NCBI GenBank assembly: GCA_964354005.1
Contig: CAYGYD010000003.1
Location: 1 to 35,849, forward strand
From: an uncultured Dehalococcoidales bacterium
GTDB taxonomy: Bacteria > Chloroflexota > Dehalococcoidia > Dehalococcoidales > UBA2162
Direction: 5' to 3'
DNA length: 35,849 bases
Under the pieces are notes generated by a model, which did no database searches, was not told the origin of the DNA, and was given only the letters and a program-made list of their open reading frames with translations. The first letter of the stretch is position 1. Each line of letters opens with the position of its first letter. The translations under genes and the position numbers were made by a program. This document shows, piece by piece, positions 1,036 through 10,388 of this stretch.

Positions 1036-4000
1036 ATGAGAGATGAGTTAAAGTCCATTCAAAACTATATACACACCATCGAGAAAAAGCTGGCGTTGGG
1101 TGATGCCACTGAACATACCCATCGTTCCGCGCTAGAAACAATGGTGGAAAGCCTGGCTGAGGGTATCACTGCTACCAACGAACCGAAACATATTGAGTGC
1201 GGCGCTCCTGATTTCATCCTCAGAAAAGGCTCAGTCACCGCTGGCTATATTGAGGCTAAGGACATCGGCAAGAGCCTTGATGAAGCGGAAAATACGGACC
1301 AACTCAAGCGCTACCGCGATTCACTCACTAACCTGATTCTTACCGATTACCTTGAGTTCCGCTGGTACGTGGATGGAGGAAAGCGTTTGTCTGCCCGCCT
1401 AGGGAGTCCGAGCAAAGACGGTAAAATCAGGCGGGACAAAGACGGCATTCAGGCTGTAGCCGAACTCTTAACAGCTTTTCTCTCTCACAAAGCCGAGGGC
1501 GTGGGTACACCCAGGGAGCTTGCCCGGCGTATGGCCCGGCAGGCACACCTGATTCGAAATCTCATCATTAACGCCTTTAAGAACGAGCCAGAAGGTGGCA
1601 GTCTGCACACCCAACTTGCTGCTTTTCGTGATAATCTCATCCCCGACCTGTCGGCCGAGTATTTTGCCGATATGTATGCCCAGACCATCGCCTACGGGCT
1701 GTTTGCCGCCCGCTGCACCTCCAAGAATGGCGCCTCCTTTACCCGCCTCGATGCCGCCCAAAACCTGCCCAGGACTAACCCATTCCTGAGAAAACTGTTC
1801 CAGTACATCGCCGGCTACGACCTCGATGACCGCATTGCCTGGCTGGTGGACGACCTGGCGCAGGTATTGGCCCAGGCGGATATGGAGGCGGTCCTGAAAG
1901 ACTTCGGCAAGCACAGCGGCAAAGAAGACCCGGTGGTGCACTTCTATGAGACCTTCCTGAAGGAATACGACGAGAAGATAAGGGAAATGCGCGGTGTCTA
2001 CTACACGCCGGAGCCGGTGGTCAGTTACATTGTGCGCTCTATCGACCACCTGCTGAAGACACGCTTTGGCAAACCACAGGGGCTGGCTGATGATAATACC
2101 CTCATCCTCGACCCGGCCACCGGCACGGCTACCTTCCTCTACATGGTCATAAATGAGATTTACCAGGCTAACATTAGCAAGGGACAGCAGGGCACATGGA
2201 ACGAGTATGTAAAGGATAAGCTCCTGCCCCGCATCTTCGGGTTTGAGCTGCTGATGGCCCCCTACGCCGTCGCTCATCTGAAGCTGGGGCTGCTGCTGCA
2301 AGAGACCGGCTACGAGTTCCAGAGTGACGAGCGTCTGGGCATCTACCTGACTAACACGCTGGATGAGGCTTTCAAACACTCCGAAACACTCTTCGCCCGG
2401 TGGATAAGCGAGGAAGCCAACGCCGCCGCCGAGATTAAGAAGGAAAAGTCGATCATGGTGGTGCTGGGCAATCCGCCATATTCAGGAATTTCAGCTAATG
2501 CTAGTGTTCAGATGGTTACAGACCCGAAAACTGGTAAGACCAAGAAAGAGTTAACATGGATTGGCAAACTTATTGAAGACTATAAGGTGATAGACGGCCA
2601 TCCATTGGGCGAACGTAAGCACTGGCTGCAGGATGATTATGTGAAATTCATCCGTTTCGGGCAATGGCGTATTGAACGCACTGGACAGGGCGTTCTCGCT
2701 TTTATTACCAACCACGGTTATCTCGATAATCCTACATTTCGAGGCATGCGGCAATCTCTACTAAATACCTTCACTGATATCTATATACTTAATCTTCATG
2801 GGAATGTGAAGAAAAAGGAAGTCGCCCCGGATGGTGATAAAGACACCAATGTCTTTGATATACAGCAAGGTGTAGCTATCGGCATTTTTATTAAAGAAGC
2901 TGGCAAGGAGCCATCCGGCAAAATACATTACGCTGACCTCTGGGGACTTCGAGAAGGGAAATACCAAGCTCTTTTCGAGACAGACGTTAATGATACCGAG
3001 TGGACGGAGCTTACTCCTACGTCTCCATTCTACTTCTTTTATCCCTATGAAGAGAAGCTGAAGCCTGAATATGATAAAGGTTGGAAGATAACAGATATAT
3101 TCCCGCTCAATTCTACCGGAATAGTTTCTGCTAGAGATGATTTCGTAATTGATTTTGAACCAAGCCCGATTAAGAAGCGTATAGAGATATTCTTGGATAA
3201 AAATCTAAGCGATGTCGAGGTAAAAGAGAAACTCTCATTATCAGAGAATTATGCCTGGCGTGTCTCAGAAGCCAGAAAGCAGCTATTGGTAGTTAAAGAA
3301 TGGGAATCACTTTTCAATAGAATTTTGTACCGTCCCTTTGACATCCGTTCAATTTACTACCACCCATCGGTGGTATGGCGTACCCGGTCCAATGTTATAC
3401 GCCATATGCTGGCAGGAGAGAATCTTGGACTTATAGCGATGCGCGAAGTAGCATTGGGTGAGTCGTATACCCACTTTGGTGTTAGCCGGTTTATGGTGGA
3501 TAATCGAGCGTTTTACAGCAATAAAGGTATTCAATATCTTTTCCCCCTCTACCTCTATCCTACCGAAGGCGAGATGCAGTTTGATGACGGAAAACGTCGC
3601 CCCAACCTGAGCCCGGAGTTCGTCAAAGCCGTTTCTGAAAAGCTGGAGCTAACATTCGTTGAGGACGGCAGAGGAGACCTTGAGCAGACCTTTGGCCCGG
3701 AGGATATATTCCACTATGCGTATTCCGTCTTTCACTCACCCACCTACCGCACCCGCTACGCTGAGTTCCTCAAGATAGACTTCCCGCGCCTGCCGCTGAC
3801 CTCGGACAAAGAGCTTTTCAAGGCGCTGGCAGCAAAGGGCGCTGAGCTGGTATCCCTGCACCTCATGGAATCGCCCCTGCTCAATAATCTCATAACCAGG
3901 TATCCCATAGCCGGCGATAACACCGTGGATAAGGTAAGCTACGATGACAGTGACAAGCGTATCTACATCAACAAAACGCAGTATTTTGAGGGCGTGCCGC

Positions 4001-4185
4001 CGGAGGTCTGGAACTTCCACATCGGCGGCTATCAGGTCTGCCAGAAATGGCTCAAAGACCGCAAGGGCAGGACACTGACCTATGATGAGCTGACCCACTA
4101 CCAGAAGGTAATCGTGGCGCTGGATGAAACTATCCGGCTGATGGGAGAAATAGACGACCTGATTCCGGGGTGGCCGGTGGGGTAG
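1036..4185 (+). CDS. single-polypeptide Type IIG / Type ISP-like restriction-modification enzyme (N-terminal PD-ExK nuclease, gamma-class N6-adenine methyltransferase, C-terminal Type-ISP-type domain)
   Basis: 1049 aa. The nuclease-like motif is GAPDFILRK...GYIEAKD. The MTase motifs are FYETFL, GVYYTPEPVV, ILDPATGTATFL (motif I) and VLGNPPYSG (motif IV). The C-terminal block YFEGVPPEVWNFHIGGYQVCQKWLKDRKGRTLTYDEL is characteristic of the Type ISP/IIG C-terminal domain. It starts 8 nt after the toxin stop. Confidence 0.85.
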   Translation: MRDELKSIQNYIHTIEKKLALGDATEHTHRSALETMVESLAEGITATNEPKHIECGAPDFILRKGSVTAGYIEAKDIGKSLDEAENTDQLKRYRDSLTNLILTDYLEFRWYVDGGKRLSARLGSPSKDGKIRRDKDGIQAVAELLTAFLSHKAEGVGTPRELARRMARQAHLIRNLIINAFKNEPEGGSLHTQLAAFRDNLIPDLSAEYFADMYAQTIAYGLFAARCTSKNGASFTRLDAAQNLPRTNPFLRKLFQYIAGYDLDDRIAWLVDDLAQVLAQADMEAVLKDFGKHSGKEDPVVHFYETFLKEYDEKIREMRGVYYTPEPVVSYIVRSIDHLLKTRFGKPQGLADDNTLILDPATGTATFLYMVINEIYQANISKGQQGTWNEYVKDKLLPRIFGFELLMAPYAVAHLKLGLLLQETGYEFQSDERLGIYLTNTLDEAFKHSETLFARWISEEANAAAEIKKEKSIMVVLGNPPYSGISANASVQMVTDPKTGKTKKELTWIGKLIEDYKVIDGHPLGERKHWLQDDYVKFIRFGQWRIERTGQGVLAFITNHGYLDNPTFRGMRQSLLNTFTDIYILNLHGNVKKKEVAPDGDKDTNVFDIQQGVAIGIFIKEAGKEPSGKIHYADLWGLREGKYQALFETDVNDTEWTELTPTSPFYFFYPYEEKLKPEYDKGWKITDIFPLNSTGIVSARDDFVIDFEPSPIKKRIEIFLDKNLSDVEVKEKLSLSENYAWRVSEARKQLLVVKEWESLFNRILYRPFDIRSIYYHPSVVWRTRSNVIRHMLAGENLGLIAMREVALGESYTHFGVSRFMVDNRAFYSNKGIQYLFPLYLYPTEGEMQFDDGKRRPNLSPEFVKAVSEKLELTFVEDGRGDLEQTFGPEDIFHYAYSVFHSPTYRTRYAEFLKIDFPRLPLTSDKELFKALAAKGAELVSLHLMESPLLNNLITRYPIAGDNTVDKVSYDDSDKRIYINKTQYFEGVPPEVWNFHIGGYQVCQKWLKDRKGRTLTYDELTHYQKVIVALDETIRLMGEIDDLIPGWPVG

Positions 4186-4188
4186 GAT

Positions 4189-4941
4189 ATGGAAGCGGAA
4201 ATTAGGTCGTTTGATATAAAGAAATTGCCTTACACCGCGCGTTTTGGGCTTGGCTCTACAGAGCCTATTAAGAGGTGGGCAAGATTTACACTGATGGAGA
4301 GCGGTGATCTCTACTGGACTCGTGCGATTCATGTACGTAAAGATGTAGATGGGACCAACATGCATATCTCTGTTCACCATAGTGGTGAAATATACTCTTC
4401 ACGGTATGTTGGGAGTGGAGATGAACATAAAAAGGTTCATTCTCGCAAAGTAGGCAATATAGGCGGTCCGTTTAGAGGCATAACAGTTCCACACCAGATG
4501 GAAAGTGGGAATGAACTTCTTGAACCCGGCTATCTCTACCATGGCTTACCCACATTGACGGACAAAGCCAAGAAGGCAGATACACAAAATAAGTTCGTTG
4601 CCTGCCTTGATGAGCGGCTGGTCAACTCAAGACTGTATTATTCCCTCGATCTTGTATCCTGGACAGGCGAAGACGAGATAACCGCCTATCTGATGACTGG
4701 ACGGAATCAGTTTTTCGCTGAGAATGACCCGCGCTGTCATGCGTTCATCTTTTGCTGGGAACGTGTGTCAATCGTTGTTATCATGAGATTCACAGATGGG
4801 GATAGTCCGATTGATATTCAGAAAGTAACTGAAGCTGGCCAAAATGCTCATCCACTTAAGCGATTTTTCCACCATGAGACTCTCAATCTATCAGAATCAG
4901 TCTCGCTTAAGGTTGACCACAGGAGGCAGCCATGGGGGTAA
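4189..4941 (+). CDS. hypothetical protein, no recognisable family; probably translationally coupled to the RM gene
   Basis: A 250-aa ORF whose ATG lies 3 nt after the RM stop (TAG 4183-4185). G+C is about 43% against about 60% in the RM 3' end. I can name no motifs. Confidence 0.6.
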   Translation: MEAEIRSFDIKKLPYTARFGLGSTEPIKRWARFTLMESGDLYWTRAIHVRKDVDGTNMHISVHHSGEIYSSRYVGSGDEHKKVHSRKVGNIGGPFRGITVPHQMESGNELLEPGYLYHGLPTLTDKAKKADTQNKFVACLDERLVNSRLYYSLDLVSWTGEDEITAYLMTGRNQFFAENDPRCHAFIFCWERVSIVVIMRFTDGDSPIDIQKVTEAGQNAHPLKRFFHHETLNLSESVSLKVDHRRQPWG

Positions 4942-5009
4942 CATGCCCCAGCTGCGGGTTTGAAGACGAGGGTAATTTCCGTAGCCCCTGCCAAGGATGT
5001 CAACGCTGA
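4932..5009 (+). CDS. possible 25-aa zinc-ribbon micro-ORF (MGVTCPSCGFEDEGNFRSPCQGCQR)
   Basis: A perfect AGGAGG (4921-4926) lies 5 nt before ATG 4932. The peptide has a CxxC-x12-CxxC arrangement. It overlaps the stop of the 250-aa ORF by 10 nt and is too short for the ORF track. It could instead be the remnant of a longer zinc-ribbon gene. Confidence 0.3.
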   Translation: MGVTCPSCGFEDEGNFRSPCQGCQR

Positions 5010-5069
5010 CATACGATTCTGTTCATTTGGAATCAATCCATGGCCAGCCTCACCATTGGCCACCGACCA

Positions 5070-5094
5070 TTGCACATTCCGTCAGAATGTGCAA
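5070..5094. terminator. hairpin between convergent genes (TTGCACATTC-5-GAATGTGCAA)
   Basis: A perfect 10-bp inverted repeat with a 5-nt loop sits in the 5010-5188 gap between the plus-strand RM operon and the minus-strand 381-aa gene. There is no clear U-tract on either side. Confidence 0.4.
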
Positions 5095-5188
5095 GCTACT
5101 CGCATTGGGTAATGAAGATGCATCTTTGAAGGTGCCCTAACAATCCGTTACCCTAAAGAGATACTGAGGGAAACCCTGGCCCAAATGC

Positions 5189-6334
5189 TTATCTGGTGGC
5201 AGGTGCACTGCTGCAAAGACCAGCGCCGGCGGCATTAATAACTGGACACTCCTGTTCTTCACAGCTTCGTCTGTACCCGGTCATTATCAGTAGCACGGAG
5301 CACAGCTTAACTGGCCCAGGTTTTGCGCAAAAGTCAACAGCTTTATTGCCCCCGAATATGCATATATCACAAAGGTCTTTGTCACACATTCTAGAGGCGA
5401 AATCGAATGATACATCGAGTTGTTCCGGGTAAAATTCTGTTCCCAGGTCGGCAGCCCTGATTGCTTCGTAAATTCTGCGCGCCAACGTGGGGGAGTTAAC
5501 CAAACGTTTTGCGCCGGGTTTCCGCGTCTGAATCCCGGCTCCTTCAGCGAGAGGGTACAGAAGTCTGCCAGTAAAAACATCATTCCAAATATCACCTGGA
5601 AGCTCTAGCTGTGAAAGCTCAAAGTTTTGCGCAGGCCAAGGGAAGGTTTCCTCAATGCACTTGCGGAGCCCCTTATGCTTTAGATAATCCCGCAGAGCTG
5701 CCCATAACCTTTTTTGCCCCCCACTCGTTGTGGTATTCTTCCATCTTTGGAAATGGGCGTCCAATTTCTCCTTGTTATTGAGGCTCAAGAGATGCTTCGC
5801 ATCTTCCTTGGGGTAATCCTTCGGATTTACGTACGTCAAAATGTACAGTGCGTGGGCTAATCGCCTTAGAGCTTCTGGGGCATCGACATAGCGCTCAATA
5901 AAGAATTTCATAAATTCCACTAAACTCCCGTTATAGTCAACCAGCAATTCCAGGGTCCGACCAATTTGGTTGTACTGCCATTTATACCGTGGCGTGAATT
6001 CCAATTGAGTACCGGTGATAACCAGAGTTGGTACCTTAGGCAGTGGAGGCAACGGCTTCCCATAGTAGTCGGAAAGTAAATCCGAGGGGTGCGCTCCTGC
6101 GGTATAGTCACCGACAATCTTGGCAAACACCGGAAGTCCCTTTGTCCAAACTGTCCTCGCTGGCATCCGCATATCTGTAACGTATGTGACCCAGTGCGCC
6201 AATACCTTTTGGGCTGATGCAAGATTCTTGGGTCCTTCCTCTTGCCAGCCTTCCCACCACTCACCAGTTGCCCACCTGGCCTGGTCAAGCCAAGAAACAA
6301 CCCCTGCAAACCGTTCAAGTTCTTGCATATTCAT
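5189..6334 (-). CDS. hypothetical Cys-rich protein (381 aa); possible Fe-S or Zn protein, weakly reminiscent of the DUF2400/TIGR02757 and HhH-type fold
   Basis: The track ORF was trimmed to MNMQELERF (ATG 6334), which is preceded by GGAAAGGAGA. Seven Cys lie in the last 60 or so residues (MCDKDLCDICIFGGNKAVDFCAKPGPVKLCSVLLIMTGYRRSCEEQECP). The loose pattern KRLWAALRDYLKHK .. LELPGDIWNDV .. DVSFDFASRMC resembles DUF2400-like proteins, but this rests on memory only. Confidence 0.55.
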   Translation of the reverse strand: MNMQELERFAGVVSWLDQARWATGEWWEGWQEEGPKNLASAQKVLAHWVTYVTDMRMPARTVWTKGLPVFAKIVGDYTAGAHPSDLLSDYYGKPLPPLPKVPTLVITGTQLEFTPRYKWQYNQIGRTLELLVDYNGSLVEFMKFFIERYVDAPEALRRLAHALYILTYVNPKDYPKEDAKHLLSLNNKEKLDAHFQRWKNTTTSGGQKRLWAALRDYLKHKGLRKCIEETFPWPAQNFELSQLELPGDIWNDVFTGRLLYPLAEGAGIQTRKPGAKRLVNSPTLARRIYEAIRAADLGTEFYPEQLDVSFDFASRMCDKDLCDICIFGGNKAVDFCAKPGPVKLCSVLLIMTGYRRSCEEQECPVINAAGAGLCSSAPATR

Positions 6335-6535
6335 TCTCCTTTCCTGTCTAAAAAAGCCTAAGCACAGTATATCTCGCTTGCGAATTGAGATACAAGAAAT
6401 TAGCCGTTTTAGGAGAACCGTAATCCAACGAAAAGCCATAATGTTTCCTGCATTCCTGCGAACGGTTCTAGCCTTACCGTGTGGGATTCTTTTGTTGAAA
6501 CAAAATCAAGCCGTTGACGAATATTTTTTCAAGAT

Positions 6536-7015
6536 TTAACCGGCGAAACTAGAGCGCATTTTAATCCCCCAGTGGTTATCTTGTCGTGTCATTATCCAAA
6601 TAGAAGGGAATGTGCCAATTTTGCTGCCGTCAACTCTGTATCTGGAAAATGTTACCATCAGATGGACCTTGTTCTCAATGCTTTGAATCACCACGCGGGA
6701 ATCCCAGCAGCTATGGTTCCAACCGTAACGTTGGCGGAAATCGGTGAAGAAATTGGGTGGTGACAGGCTGTCGGCTTTTTCACTGACTACCAAAACACCG
6801 TTGGCACCCACCCGGGCATGTGGAAAGTTAATAAAACTATTGGTTTTGGTAACGTTAGCCTCATTAAATGCGTCCATATAGGCGATAGCGGCTTTGACTG
6901 CTTTCTCCTCCGGTTCATTGTTAACGACTGTTATAACCTGATATCCCTCTGAAGTTTTGGTTATTTTTTCGATGGTCATTACCTGTTTCGGATATTGGTT
7001 TTTAGGCTGTGTCAT
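6536..7015 (-). CDS. NTF2-like/SnoaL-like fold protein (hypothetical)
   Basis: 159 aa. AIAYMDAFNE...HLMVTFSRYRVDGSKIGTFPSIWIMTRQDNHWGIKMRSSF has the alpha+beta cone pattern typical of SnoaL/DUF4440-type proteins. AAGGGGAA lies upstream of ATG 7015. Confidence 0.5.
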   Translation of the reverse strand: MTQPKNQYPKQVMTIEKITKTSEGYQVITVVNNEPEEKAVKAAIAYMDAFNEANVTKTNSFINFPHARVGANGVLVVSEKADSLSPPNFFTDFRQRYGWNHSCWDSRVVIQSIENKVHLMVTFSRYRVDGSKIGTFPSIWIMTRQDNHWGIKMRSSFAG

Positions 7016-7452: not shown

Positions 7453-8781
7453 GTGGCGATGAGACACATCAGCAACAAGCTCCATCTCGTTGCTTTCGGG
7501 CTGATTTTAGGTGCGGCCGCTTTTTTCAGATTCTGGGCGGCTCCCCTTTCGGCTGGCGTTGATGTTGCCCAGTTTTGGGCGTTTGCCAAGGTTTTCCAGC
7601 TCCACGGCCTTGATTTTTATCGGTATGCGGCTGGTAATGCGGCTATCTTCCCTTTCCCAGGCTGGGCTTTCGTCTATCCGCCGGTATGGCTTCTGATGCT
7701 AGGCCTATCCATGCTAGCGGCACCGGCAAGTTCCGCCACGGACTTCATGGTGGATGCTAGCTGGCGGTTGGCGATGAAGACCCCGATTATATTCGCCGAC
7801 CTGGCTATAGGCGGCCTCATATACTGGGCTGTGCCCGGCGCGAAATGGCGGAAACTTCTGTTCGCCAGCCTGTGGTTGTTTCATCCTACCGCCTGGTACG
7901 AATCGGCTGTCTTCGGGCAGTTTGACGCCATAGCCGCCGCTTTCCTGTTGGCCTCACTGATTTTATGCGAGCGGGGAAAGGACAGGCTGGCATTCCTGCT
8001 CGCTGGCTTAGCGGCGATGACCAAGCAACATACACTAATACCGATAGTACTCATGGTGGTGATAAGCGCACGCCACATTCCCAAGCGCCGACTCCTCAGC
8101 GATTGTTTTATCTTTCTAGCCGTTGTGGTATTTCTATCTATCCCCTTTTTGCTTACGGGAAACTTCTATCCTTATGCCCGCTCACTGTTCGTACCGGCGT
8201 GGGCGCCAGGTTACCAGCATCCCTTGGTATATGCCTTCAGTGGGAGCAGTGCTCTTCTTACCTACCTGCACGATATCTTCGGCTGGGAGACTAAGGGCCT
8301 TATGCAGCTCAATCTGCCCATACTGGCTATTGCCTTGCTCGCTGTCCTTGTATTGAGTTACCGGAGGTCAATTACTCTGACACAAGGTGTGCTTCTTGGC
8401 TTCCTTCTCTTCCTCGGCCTCTCCTATCAGGTCAACTACCAGTATCTCGTGATATACATACCAGTGGCAATACTGGTAGCTTCCAGGACACAGTATAGAA
8501 GCGAAAGAGCTTTTACTTTGGTGCTGGCCCTGCTTCCCGCTGTGTGGCTATGGCTTTTTGATGTTTCTTTCTGGTTCAACTACTTCACTCCCAAAAACTC
8601 CTGGGTCACACCTATATTTGGCCGTATCGGCTTAACTCACTATGTGCCCGATTATGCTTATGTGTCTCTGGCTACGGTGCTCATGGCTCTTTTCCTGACC
8701 TATGTGGTGCTCATTTTTGTGCGGTGGCATCGTCAACCGCTAAGACCACTATCGCAGTCATTGACAAAACCGGTGGCATAA
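7453..8781 (+). CDS. polytopic membrane protein, GT-C-fold glycosyltransferase-like (DUF2029/PMT-like)
   Basis: 442 aa and highly hydrophobic, with about 10 or more TM segments. The N-terminal FFRFWAAPLSAGVDVAQFW...HGLDFY loop pattern matches GT-C mannosyl/arabinosyltransferase-like proteins. The start is GTG 7453 or ATG 7459. Confidence 0.55.
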   Translation: MAMRHISNKLHLVAFGLILGAAAFFRFWAAPLSAGVDVAQFWAFAKVFQLHGLDFYRYAAGNAAIFPFPGWAFVYPPVWLLMLGLSMLAAPASSATDFMVDASWRLAMKTPIIFADLAIGGLIYWAVPGAKWRKLLFASLWLFHPTAWYESAVFGQFDAIAAAFLLASLILCERGKDRLAFLLAGLAAMTKQHTLIPIVLMVVISARHIPKRRLLSDCFIFLAVVVFLSIPFLLTGNFYPYARSLFVPAWAPGYQHPLVYAFSGSSALLTYLHDIFGWETKGLMQLNLPILAIALLAVLVLSYRRSITLTQGVLLGFLLFLGLSYQVNYQYLVIYIPVAILVASRTQYRSERAFTLVLALLPAVWLWLFDVSFWFNYFTPKNSWVTPIFGRIGLTHYVPDYAYVSLATVLMALFLTYVVLIFVRWHRQPLRPLSQSLTKPVA

Positions 8782-8867: not shown

Positions 8868-10388
8868 ATGCTGGCCAAAGTTATGACCTGCGCTATCGTC
8901 GGGCTGGATGGCGCCATTGTTGAGGTGGAAACAGATATTTCCCCCGGGCTGCCCTTCTTTGCCATCGTCGGCTTGCCGGATACAGCGGTACAGGAAGCCA
9001 AAGAAAGGGTCAGGGCGGCTATCCGCAACTCCGGCTGCACCTTCCCGATGAAGCGCATCGTGGTCAACCTGGCCCCCGCCGACCTCAAGAAAGCCGGGCC
9101 GGCCTACGACCTGCCCATCGCCATGGGTATCCTGCTCAGTTCCGAGCAGGTCTCCGCCGACCTCTCCAAAACGATTCTCCTGGGTGAATTGTCATTGGAC
9201 GGCGGTCTGCGCCACACCAGTGGCGTCCTGCCCATGGTGGCGCTGGCCTATGGGCAGGGATTCTCCGACATCATCGTGCCGGAAGCTGATGTCAAAGAAG
9301 CATCCCTGATAGAAGGAACCAAGGTCGTTCCCTTCAACTCGCTGGCCCAACTGGTCAGCTATCTCCGTGGTGAGATACCGGCCCCGGAGTATAAAGCCGA
9401 AAAGGTTGAAGAATACGAGGCTCCGCTTTCCTCGGCGAGCGACCTGGCTTACATCAAAGGCCAGGAACACGCCAAGCGGGCTCTGGAGGTGGCCGCCGCC
9501 GGCGGTCACAACCTGGTGATGATGGGGCCGCCAGGCAGCGGCAAAACTCTCCTCGCCCGTGCTCTCCCCTCAATAATGCCGCCCCTGACCAATGAGGAAG
9601 CCCTGGAGGTCACTAAAATCTATAGCGTGGCTGGGCTTTTGCCCTCGGATACCCCCTTAATCCGGCAGCGACCCTTCCGCGCCCCGCACTACACCATCTC
9701 CAACGCTGGCCTGGTGGGGGGTGGGCACATGCCCAAGCCGGGCGAAATCAGCCTCAGCCACCGCGGCGTTCTCTTCCTGGACGAGTTGCCTGAATTCGGG
9801 CATACCCTGCTGGAAACCCTGCGCCAACCACTGGAAGACAAGGTCATTACTATCAGTCGCGCTCACGGCAGTGTCATGTTCCCGGCCAACTTTATGCTCG
9901 TGGGTGCCATGAACCCCTGCCCTTGTGGCTATTACGGCGACCCCGTTAGACAATGCACCTGTCCGCCCGGAGTAGTCTCCCGTTATCAGCGACGAATGAG
10001 CGGGCCCTTCATCGACCGCGTGGACATATTTATTGAAGTGCCCCATATTGACTACGAGAAGCTGGCTGATGAACGATTGGGCGAAAAGTCAGAGCGAGTG
10101 CAGGCGAGGGTAGTGGCCGCCCGCACCCGACAACTCGTGCGCTTCAGTGGCACCAAACTGACCGGTAACGCCGAGATGACGCCGAGTGAAGTGAGAGCGT
10201 TTTGTCAGGTGGAGGCGTCAGCCCAGAGTCTTCTGAAGGCGGCGATGAAACAACTCTACCTCTCCGCCCGTGCCTTCCATCGTATCCTCAAACTGGCCCG
10301 GACGATTGCCGACCTGGATAATGGTGATATCATCAAAGCCCACCACCTGGCTGAAGCCATTCAGTACCGACCAAGGACAACATTGTAG
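8868..10388 (+). CDS. comM: YifB/ComM-family Mg-chelatase-like AAA+ protein
   Basis: 506 aa. The N-terminal Lon-like domain reads AIVGLDGAIVEVETDISPGLPFFAIVGLPDTAVQEAKERVRAAI. Walker A is GPPGSGKT, LFLDELPEF is present, and there is a C-terminal Mg-chelatase ChlI-like region. Confidence 0.9.
   Translation: MLAKVMTCAIVGLDGAIVEVETDISPGLPFFAIVGLPDTAVQEAKERVRAAIRNSGCTFPMKRIVVNLAPADLKKAGPAYDLPIAMGILLSSEQVSADLSKTILLGELSLDGGLRHTSGVLPMVALAYGQGFSDIIVPEADVKEASLIEGTKVVPFNSLAQLVSYLRGEIPAPEYKAEKVEEYEAPLSSASDLAYIKGQEHAKRALEVAAAGGHNLVMMGPPGSGKTLLARALPSIMPPLTNEEALEVTKIYSVAGLLPSDTPLIRQRPFRAPHYTISNAGLVGGGHMPKPGEISLSHRGVLFLDELPEFGHTLLETLRQPLEDKVITISRAHGSVMFPANFMLVGAMNPCPCGYYGDPVRQCTCPPGVVSRYQRRMSGPFIDRVDIFIEVPHIDYEKLADERLGEKSERVQARVVAARTRQLVRFSGTKLTGNAEMTPSEVRAFCQVEASAQSLLKAAMKQLYLSARAFHRILKLARTIADLDNGDIIKAHHLAEAIQYRPRTTL

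Follow-up and report, generated by a model that had tools for sequence, protein, structure and literature searches.

What is a second gene doing directly behind a restriction enzyme of a type that should need no partner? Single-chain Type IIG enzymes are regarded as the minimal, self-contained form of restriction–modification (RM), and the question is raised by a 35,849-nt stretch of DNA (the window) from an uncultured Dehalococcoidales bacterium of the Chloroflexota (contig CAYGYD010000003.1, assembly GCA_964354005.1). In it, the gene of a single-chain, MmeI-like Type IIG enzyme of 1049 amino acids (aa) (IIG; 1036–4185, + strand) is followed by an open reading frame of 250 aa (hereafter the ORF; 4189–4941, + strand). 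As a system, the locus belongs among the Type IIG RM cassettes already known; what is new is an optional accessory gene. As to the role of that gene, the reading we tentatively prefer, at a probability of roughly 0.4, is that the ORF is an optional and exchangeable auxiliary module of a mobile defence cassette composed of IIG with or without a toxin–antitoxin (TA) pair, and that its product would act in trans rather than as a subunit of the enzyme.

The physical link between the two genes was examined at the junction (4171–4191, + strand), which by sequence and comparison comprises the last IIG codons (WPVG), a Shine–Dalgarno-like GGTGGGG, the IIG stop TAG (4183–4185), GAT and the ATG of the ORF at 4189. 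The initial annotation, made from the sequence of this DNA alone, had placed the ATG 3 nt past the RM stop, seen no promoter before it and proposed that the ORF is expressed with the enzyme, and the first two points hold, while the third is supported. The 3-nt spacer is in frame, no sigma-70-like site was found on the + strand of 3541–4189 and no terminator-like hairpin lies between IIG and the ORF. To place the junction in context, 37 loci were gathered by looking up exact proteins and by scanning genome and metagenome collections for patterns, and their neighbours were tested by tblastn with the IIG and ORF of the window. In L001, L009, L015, L016, L022 and L026 the ORF homologue is immediately preceded by a full-length IIG homologue (59–76% identity), and an IIG homologue has the same position at contig edges in L014, L020, L021, L024 and L025; in total, IIG directly precedes the ORF in at least 10 distinct loci whose flanks are otherwise unrelated. 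The junction DNA is itself conserved across loci. It takes the form of TAG, 2–3 nt and ATG in the window, L001, L009, L014, L015, L020 and L021, and of a TAATG or TGATG stop/start overlap in L012, L013, L019, L022 and L024–L026, with a spacer of 32–41 nt in L016 and L002. Such short or overlapping stop–start junctions are the classical arrangement for translational coupling. Because the 2–3-nt spacer or the overlap recurs in at least 10 loci, coupling of the ORF to IIG is well supported by the comparison.

Purifying selection acts on the ORF, which is a genuine protein-coding gene. Its frame is open over all 250 codons and it is no orphan, as it had first been called: a word-indexed search of 5.8 billion proteins returned 35 clusters of close relatives at 50–81% identity, an exhaustive HMMER scan of 1.84 billion 50%-identity cluster representatives gave 16 matches, some at 24–35% identity, and a profile built on the distant members collected about 12 clusters at 24–35% identity. 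All named sources of these homologues are metagenome-assembled genomes of Dehalococcoidia/Chloroflexota or metagenomes. Pairwise dN/dS among 16 loci, nearly identical pairs excepted, ranges from 0.08 to 0.38. The initial annotation had named an absence of purifying selection and a clear match to a known domain as outcomes that would speak against a new accessory gene; what we found was the constraint just described and zero matching families for the ORF in Pfam, NCBIfam, PADLOC and PHROGs. Searching the HMM libraries with 28 family members one by one yielded only noise (best E = 0.033), PDB sequences gave no match either by phmmer with the ORF or with the family profile, and in the exhaustive scan of 50%-identity representatives the ORF was never seen fused with a further domain. 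In agreement with the same annotation, which had recognized neither a motif, a P-loop nor a transmembrane segment, the ORF has no Walker A motif and no predicted transmembrane segment (highest 19-residue hydropathy, 1.36), and the lack of any recognizable motif is upheld by the HMM libraries and by two structure searches. With a predicted isoelectric point (pI) of 6–9 across the family, the product is modelled as a soluble, near-neutral, beta-rich protein.

Several candidate identities and origins were tried and set aside. Strings in the ORF that resemble PD-(D/E)xK, HNH or HEPN motifs by regular expression fall on non-conserved residues. Descent from a diverged IIG domain was rejected (blastp E ≥ 0.18; hhalign probability against the IIG alignment, 0.16%). 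The type III chaperone-like YbjN family, suggested by PF10722 at E = 0.057 in two members, was rejected as hhalign against Escherichia coli YbjN gave a probability of 0.12%. A phage origin is likewise unsupported, IMG/VR containing no relatives of the ORF or of IIG.

Base composition had been taken as a sign of separate acquisition. The G+C content of the ORF is 45.8%, not about 43% as first stated, and 44.2% at third codon positions (GC3), compared to 53.7% G+C for the window; the specificity segment of IIG is lower still, at 41–44%. In six of seven loci the GC3 of the ORF (0.38–0.48) is 9–24 points below that of IIG (0.57–0.63), and this gap persists although the synonymous divergence between loci is saturated. 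Because the low GC3 recurs in six of the seven loci, it reads as a long-standing property of the gene and not as a mark of recent import here. Selection for low translation or origin in a separate gene pool are possible causes of the gap.

The upstream gene is, by its domains and motifs, a complete Type IIG member, as had been proposed, with nuclease, methyltransferase and specificity modules all present. The PADLOC model REase_MTase_IIG matches 1036–4185 at 1030.8 bits, and Pfam identifies Type_ISP_C (5e-95) and N6_Mtase (1.3e-10), with weaker matches to MmeI_Mtase and Eco57I. A PD-(D/E)xK nuclease motif is found at aa 58–75 (P58-D59...E73-A-K75, or PD-x13-EAK) and is also present in the IIG homologues of L016, L022, L026 and L019, and the gamma-type N6-adenine methyltransferase motifs DPATGTATF and NPPY lie at aa 359 and aa 479, ahead of the Type_ISP_C specificity domain. 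The gene as a whole has 50.4% G+C and a GC3 of 59.1%; its specificity segment (2536–3436, aa ~500–800) stands out from the remainder (41–44% against 49–60% G+C) and is 44–56% identical between homologues whose other domains are 61–92% identical, a pattern that fits swapping of the target-recognition segment. The enzyme family is large: at E ≤ 1e-100 it counts at least 7,992 proteins, and over 120 clusters are 68% or more identical to the window enzyme. One close homologue (P0129; 70% identity, 1,217 aa) has PF04480 (DUF559, Vsr-like) as an additional domain and is a further example of an add-on in this clade. In L015 the IIG homologue (2930–6028) is split into two frames, of 492 and 514 aa, that are separated by a gap (4408–4484), probably a frameshifted pseudogene or an assembly error, and the ORF homologue behind it is intact.

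The pairing of the two genes appears to be optional. Compared by cluster counts, not locus by locus, more than 120 IIG clusters at 68% or higher identity stand against 35 close ORF clusters, and because these counts are so unequal, the faster divergence of the ORF notwithstanding, the ORF appears to be absent from most close relatives of IIG. Pairing ORF clusters with IIG clusters through their longest contigs was set aside as unreliable: the L022 ORF is on a contig of 628 kb, whereas P0005, the ORF cluster nearest to it, is listed with 2.5 kb. Conversely, the ORF is found intact where IIG has been lost. In L002–L004 only remnants of IIG (aa 44–79 and 970–1048) persist around a TerB_N/SngA-like gene, while IIG is cut to its last ~16–20 codons in L013 and to ~8 codons in L012. 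The inserted gene of L002 (8397–9959; also in L003 and L004) encodes 349 aa with a TerB_N match at 1.7e-5 and a weak SngA match, and sits between the first ~80 and the last 79 codons of IIG. All IIG-less copies of the close subfamily whose upstream flank can be read (L002–L004, L006, L012 and L013) retain IIG tail codons; in L005, L007 and L008 the flank is unreadable for them. Decay of the ORF is seen as well, with 52 codons left in L019 and truncated copies in L005–L007 and L031–L032.

Where both genes are present, they have not travelled as a unit. Across the seven loci with both, the IIG domains vary in identity together (r = 0.78–0.87), whereas ORF identity shows no correlation with that of any IIG domain (r = −0.09 to 0.08). 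Synonymous distances (dS) conflict in the same loci: between the window and L016, dS is 0.84 for the ORF and saturated for IIG; between L001 and L009, 0.77 for the ORF and 2.25 for IIG; and between L001 and L022 the order is reversed, with 2.89 for the ORF and 0.96 for IIG. Because identities are uncorrelated and synonymous distances conflict, the ORF and IIG appear to have reassorted and to have separate histories. The suggestion that the ORF was acquired separately and then joined to the operon therefore fares differently in its two parts: the synonymous distances show reassortment, and the low GC3 in six of seven loci gives no sign of recent import.

The surroundings of the close homologues point to defence. 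The defence neighbours vary from locus to locus and include GajA/GajB of Gabija (L020), a DruE-like helicase with a SIR2-TPR protein (L016), a ThsA-like SIR2 protein (L012), PDC-S11 (L015) and PDC-S61 (L025). A TA pair often precedes IIG, at 410–1035 in the window, 4120–4861 in L009, 2233–2926 in L015 and 2134–2827 in L022, with 3–8 nt between the pair and the IIG start. Its type differs by lineage, a VapBC (VapB-like/PIN) pair standing directly 5′ of IIG in L009, L015 and L022 in place of the ParDE-type pair of the window; in L016 and L026 no TA pair was found 5′ of IIG. The proposal of a candidate accessory gene is thus supported by synteny and by defence-island neighbours. A conserved third gene was considered and rejected, as the 331-aa downstream genes of L001 and L015 are not related and have no counterpart at other loci.

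To obtain structural information, the ORF was modelled with AlphaFold2 from a 35-sequence alignment (mean pLDDT 83.5, pTM 0.80). The model shows a beta-rich globular core (aa 1 to ~222) in which eight beta-strands, a helix, two strands, a helix, two strands and a helix follow one another, and, from about residue 225 onward, a low-confidence tail. The tail follows a conserved PLKR(L/F)F motif (motif and tail, 4852–4938, + strand; aa ~226–250 at pLDDT <50), and several homologues stop just past KRL. An independent model of a 27%-identical homologue (P0051; pLDDT 77.8, pTM 0.75) has the identical order of elements, and on these models the protein is inferred to fold autonomously. The Foldseek comparison that had been proposed as a check was carried out on these predicted structures, a match being defined as E ≤ 0.001 or a TM-score of at least ~0.5, and gave none in PDB or BFVD: the best E values for the ORF model were 0.02 in PDB (TM ≤ 0.20 among the listed matches) and 0.048 in BFVD, and the P0051 model, compared with PDB, reached 0.089. 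RseB, FMO protein, ArgC and Fab recur among the matches, at TM ≤ 0.2 only, and were rejected. Provisionally, the modelled fold is new relative to the solved structures of PDB and the predicted viral structures of BFVD.

Conservation across the family (24–81% identity) singles out a possible site. Invariant or nearly so are L21-G22-S23, H59, H63, G66, Y117, L120, F188, F201 and G204, with S147 also conserved, and H59 and H63 do not vary even among homologues of 24–35% identity. Both histidines belong to the string H59-I-S-V-H63-H-S-G66 (4363–4386, + strand), conserved as H-x-[ST]-x-H-x-[SN]-G, in which residues 59, 61, 63 and 65 would lie on the same side of a beta-strand and form a stripe of His and Ser (H59, S61, H63 and S65). 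Two further motifs are C139-L-D141 (4603–4611, + strand), whose Cys is nearly invariant and replaced by Ser in one distant member, and R182-C-H184 (4732–4740, + strand), whose His is kept in at least 90% of members and replaced by Tyr in a few distant ones. The pattern suggests that the H-x-S-x-H-x-S-G motif is a binding or catalytic site, and that the stripe together with Y117, C139 and H184 could form a site for a small ligand, phosphate or metal, or else a centre of hydrolysis.

Taken as an auxiliary module, the ORF would work as follows. Ribosomes finishing IIG would re-initiate at the ORF start, so that its product would be made together with the enzyme, probably in smaller amounts because of the dependence on re-initiation and the persistently lower GC3. 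The protein would fold independently and act in trans. Its likeliest task, by our guess, is to bind or process a molecule of nucleotide or nucleic-acid origin that arises during infection or restriction; this activity would add a second layer to, or tune, the defence provided by IIG.

Several points weigh against this proposal. The distant homologues occur elsewhere: those of L033–L035 follow gltB–gltD (glutamate synthase) and have DUF5069 downstream, that of L036 lies in a phage-like resolvase/T7_gp14 segment, and that of L037 stands beside an HD/HD_assoc_2 gene, with VapB and DUF5069. Such contexts fit a role unrelated to restriction. Close homologues lie behind IIG, often in defence islands, and distant ones outside RM loci. 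The loci were found through the ORF, which biases the picture of an ORF that survives without IIG. Homologous recombination through the conserved 3′ end of IIG can keep the genes adjacent without selection for a joint function. The candidate site is read from conservation alone, and the ORF has no likeness in sequence or fold to any enzyme or binding protein.

Much of this evidence can be read in another way, in which the ORF is a passenger with a function outside restriction and defence that became fixed behind IIG in one ancestral cassette and simply uses its transcript and ribosomes. We consider this possible, if somewhat doubtful. It would account for the intact ORF where only 8–79 codons of IIG remain (L002–L004, L012 and L013) and for the constraint that the L013 copy still shows against the IIG-linked copies of L024–L026 (dN/dS 0.18–0.20), and it sits well with distant homologues that have glutamate synthase genes, resolvase/T7_gp14 or an HD-domain gene and no RM neighbour, with the many IIG relatives that seem to lack the ORF and with the separate histories of the two genes. 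Against it, no independent relocation was seen: the close-subfamily copies with a readable flank all derive from the IIG 3′ junction. The flanking genes are repeatedly defence genes, and if the ORF brought the cassette nothing, it should fall into decay as frequently as IIG, whereas truncation was confined to L019, L005–L007 and L031–L032. The auxiliary module is preferred over the passenger because the readable copies descend from the IIG junction and the cassette lies in defence islands.

A bolder version of the defence role is unlikely on present indications. According to it, the ORF would found a new fold family and form, with the single-chain IIG, a two-gene defence system, its His/Ser site belonging to an enzyme or sensor that responds to a product or a failure of restriction with a second antiviral action. 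Under this view, cassettes would exchange ORF alleles in the course of an arms race, from which separate histories and a faster divergence of the ORF protein would follow.

We give still less credence to a guard-type latent toxin, in which the ORF would be held inactive under IIG and released when an anti-restriction protein of a phage blocks the enzyme. There is a precedent for a backup effector embedded in an RM locus, namely PrrC with EcoprrI (PMC1484252), and co-expression with IIG, location in defence islands and conserved, possibly catalytic His residues are all in keeping with one. Yet an intact ORF after the loss of IIG, as in L012, L013 and L002–L004, should be lethal or counter-selected, and the distant homologues stand alone. 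The protein also has no NTPase domain and no known toxin fold, and its single Rx5H string (96–102) is non-conserved, so that it offers no conserved HEPN motif.

Tight coupling is typical of genes for interacting partners, and a junction conserved in many lineages would suit an obligate subunit or regulator of IIG that sets the balance of cutting and methylation, the specificity or the assembly of the enzyme. We nonetheless judge this improbable. Enzymes of the MmeI type do their work in one polypeptide (PMC2582602), and the enzyme found here has its nuclease, methyltransferase and specificity modules intact. Between homologues the specificity domain is 44–56% identical, a variation that the ORF does not follow; the ORF seems to be missing from most of the IIG clade, it outlives IIG, and it has neither a helix–turn–helix (HTH) nor similarity to target-recognition domains (TRDs) or Methylase_S. 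The idea of a tightly dependent partner is weakened on account of the size of the IIG clade, the survival of the ORF after IIG deletion, the distant contexts without RM and the separate histories.

More improbable again is a self-protection or establishment factor, which would transiently inhibit or buffer the nuclease, or be an antitoxin-like partner, and so ease entry into new hosts. The cassette is mobile and often has a TA pair at its 5′ end, and the nuclease and methyltransferase of a single chain cannot be timed separately. Against this stands the order of synthesis, since a coupled downstream gene is made after or with the nuclease and never before it; a pI of 6–9 does not fit a DNA mimic, the ORF is kept without IIG, and no inhibitor family matches. 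Finally, a chance open frame that is no gene, in whose favour there are only the missing annotation and domain matches, is refuted by some 47 clusters of homologues, by dN/dS values far below 1, by the conserved motifs and by the confidence of the models.

The remaining features of the window place the two genes at the end of a compact same-strand cassette that consists of a promoter-like site, a ParDE-type TA pair, the Type IIG enzyme and, last, the ORF. The promoter candidate (410–438, + strand), identified by consensus match only, reads TTGACA-17-TAGAAT with a TG extension and agrees with the sigma-70 consensus at 11 of 12 positions; it is likely the start of the operon, and no other strong promoter-like site was found on the + strand upstream of the ORF. 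It is followed by a gene for a ribbon–helix–helix (RHH) antitoxin-like protein of the ParD/RHH type (91 aa; 487–762, + strand; weak matches to RH3_dom, 2.7e-4, and ParG, 1.5e-3), which overlaps by 8 nt with a ParE-family toxin gene (90 aa; 755–1027, + strand; PF05016 ParE_toxin, 5.6e-16). The IIG start codon lies 8 nt past the end of the ParE gene. The simplest reading of this layout is that promoter, TA pair, IIG and ORF form one operon, and since the sole strong promoter-like site precedes the TA pair, a TA-autoregulated promoter may drive the RM enzyme. Scanning the window for Rfam families and tRNAs gave no matches.

A number of observations concern the neighbourhood. An antisense open frame of 214 codons (3736–4380, − strand) runs across the IIG/ORF junction and is most likely a by-product of the coding strand. 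Convergent with the ORF and in the same low-G+C stretch is the gene of a 416-aa protein with a Cys-rich C terminus (5189–6439, − strand), which matched no Pfam, NCBIfam or PADLOC family; at 6536–7015 (− strand) lies that of a 159-aa protein with only a sub-threshold NTF2-like match (DUF6841, E = 0.043). About 4 kb downstream of the ORF, at 8868–10388, the window contains an intact gene of the Mg-chelatase/ComM type. In L012 (9003–11175) the gene of a large serine recombinase directly adjoins a truncated Mg_chelatase gene within a few kb of the ORF homologue, and L007 ends in a similar recombinase (8336–8622), which hints at integrative elements targeting comM near IIG/ORF cassettes. Among the distant homologues, a DUF5069 gene (E ~1e-44; 5471–5905 in L033 and 4974–5411 in L037) is located 65 nt to 1 kb downstream in these two settings, which are otherwise unlike; in L037 it comes directly after the VapB-like antitoxin gene.

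How does the cassette compare with systems already described? RM controller (C) proteins are HTH proteins of ~80–100 aa encoded upstream of the nuclease gene. Like them, the ORF is a small extra gene co-transcribed with an RM gene, but it is downstream and encodes a 250-aa beta-rich protein; a C protein was rejected on the grounds that no HTH family matches, that the model is mostly beta and that the gene follows IIG. An S subunit or TRD was rejected for want of a Methylase_S or TRD match in Pfam. 2H phosphoesterases carry two H-x-T/S-x motifs on two separate lobes, and the H-x-S-x-H-x-S string of the ORF resembles two H-x-S-x motifs; here, however, the motifs are contiguous (aa 59–66) in one hairpin, and no 2H structure was among the listed Foldseek matches, so this identity was also set aside.

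The upstream gene is a full member of the MmeI family of Type IIG enzymes (PMC2582602), with the ORF on the same transcript. The described enzymes of that family are one polypeptide without a partner gene; here a second, coupled gene is present in a minority of one Chloroflexota clade. A parallel is the PrrC/EcoprrI Type Ic locus with the rlo genes (PMC1484252, PMC3458546), where an optional non-RM gene likewise lies within or beside an RM operon. PrrC, which combines an ABC-type NTPase with a ribonuclease domain, is thought to add a second layer of defence (PMC1484252, PMC3458546). It is always silenced by its RM partner, whereas the ORF persists after loss of its partner and has a different fold. 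An anticodon nuclease of the PrrC/RloC type was in addition rejected for the ORF, which has no Walker A motif and only one Rx4-6H string (96–102), at non-conserved positions. The family is a small one, restricted to uncultured Chloroflexota; its generality is therefore limited, and experiments need heterologous hosts. Within that range, the ORF protein is a possible new defence activity and a possible new structural family, and the cassette, with TA pairs as 5′ leader modules of an RM operon, bears on the regulation and stability of mobile RM systems. A recurrent coupled partner, even an optional one, would show that accessory modules can be added to Type IIG enzymes, much as PrrC is to Type I systems.

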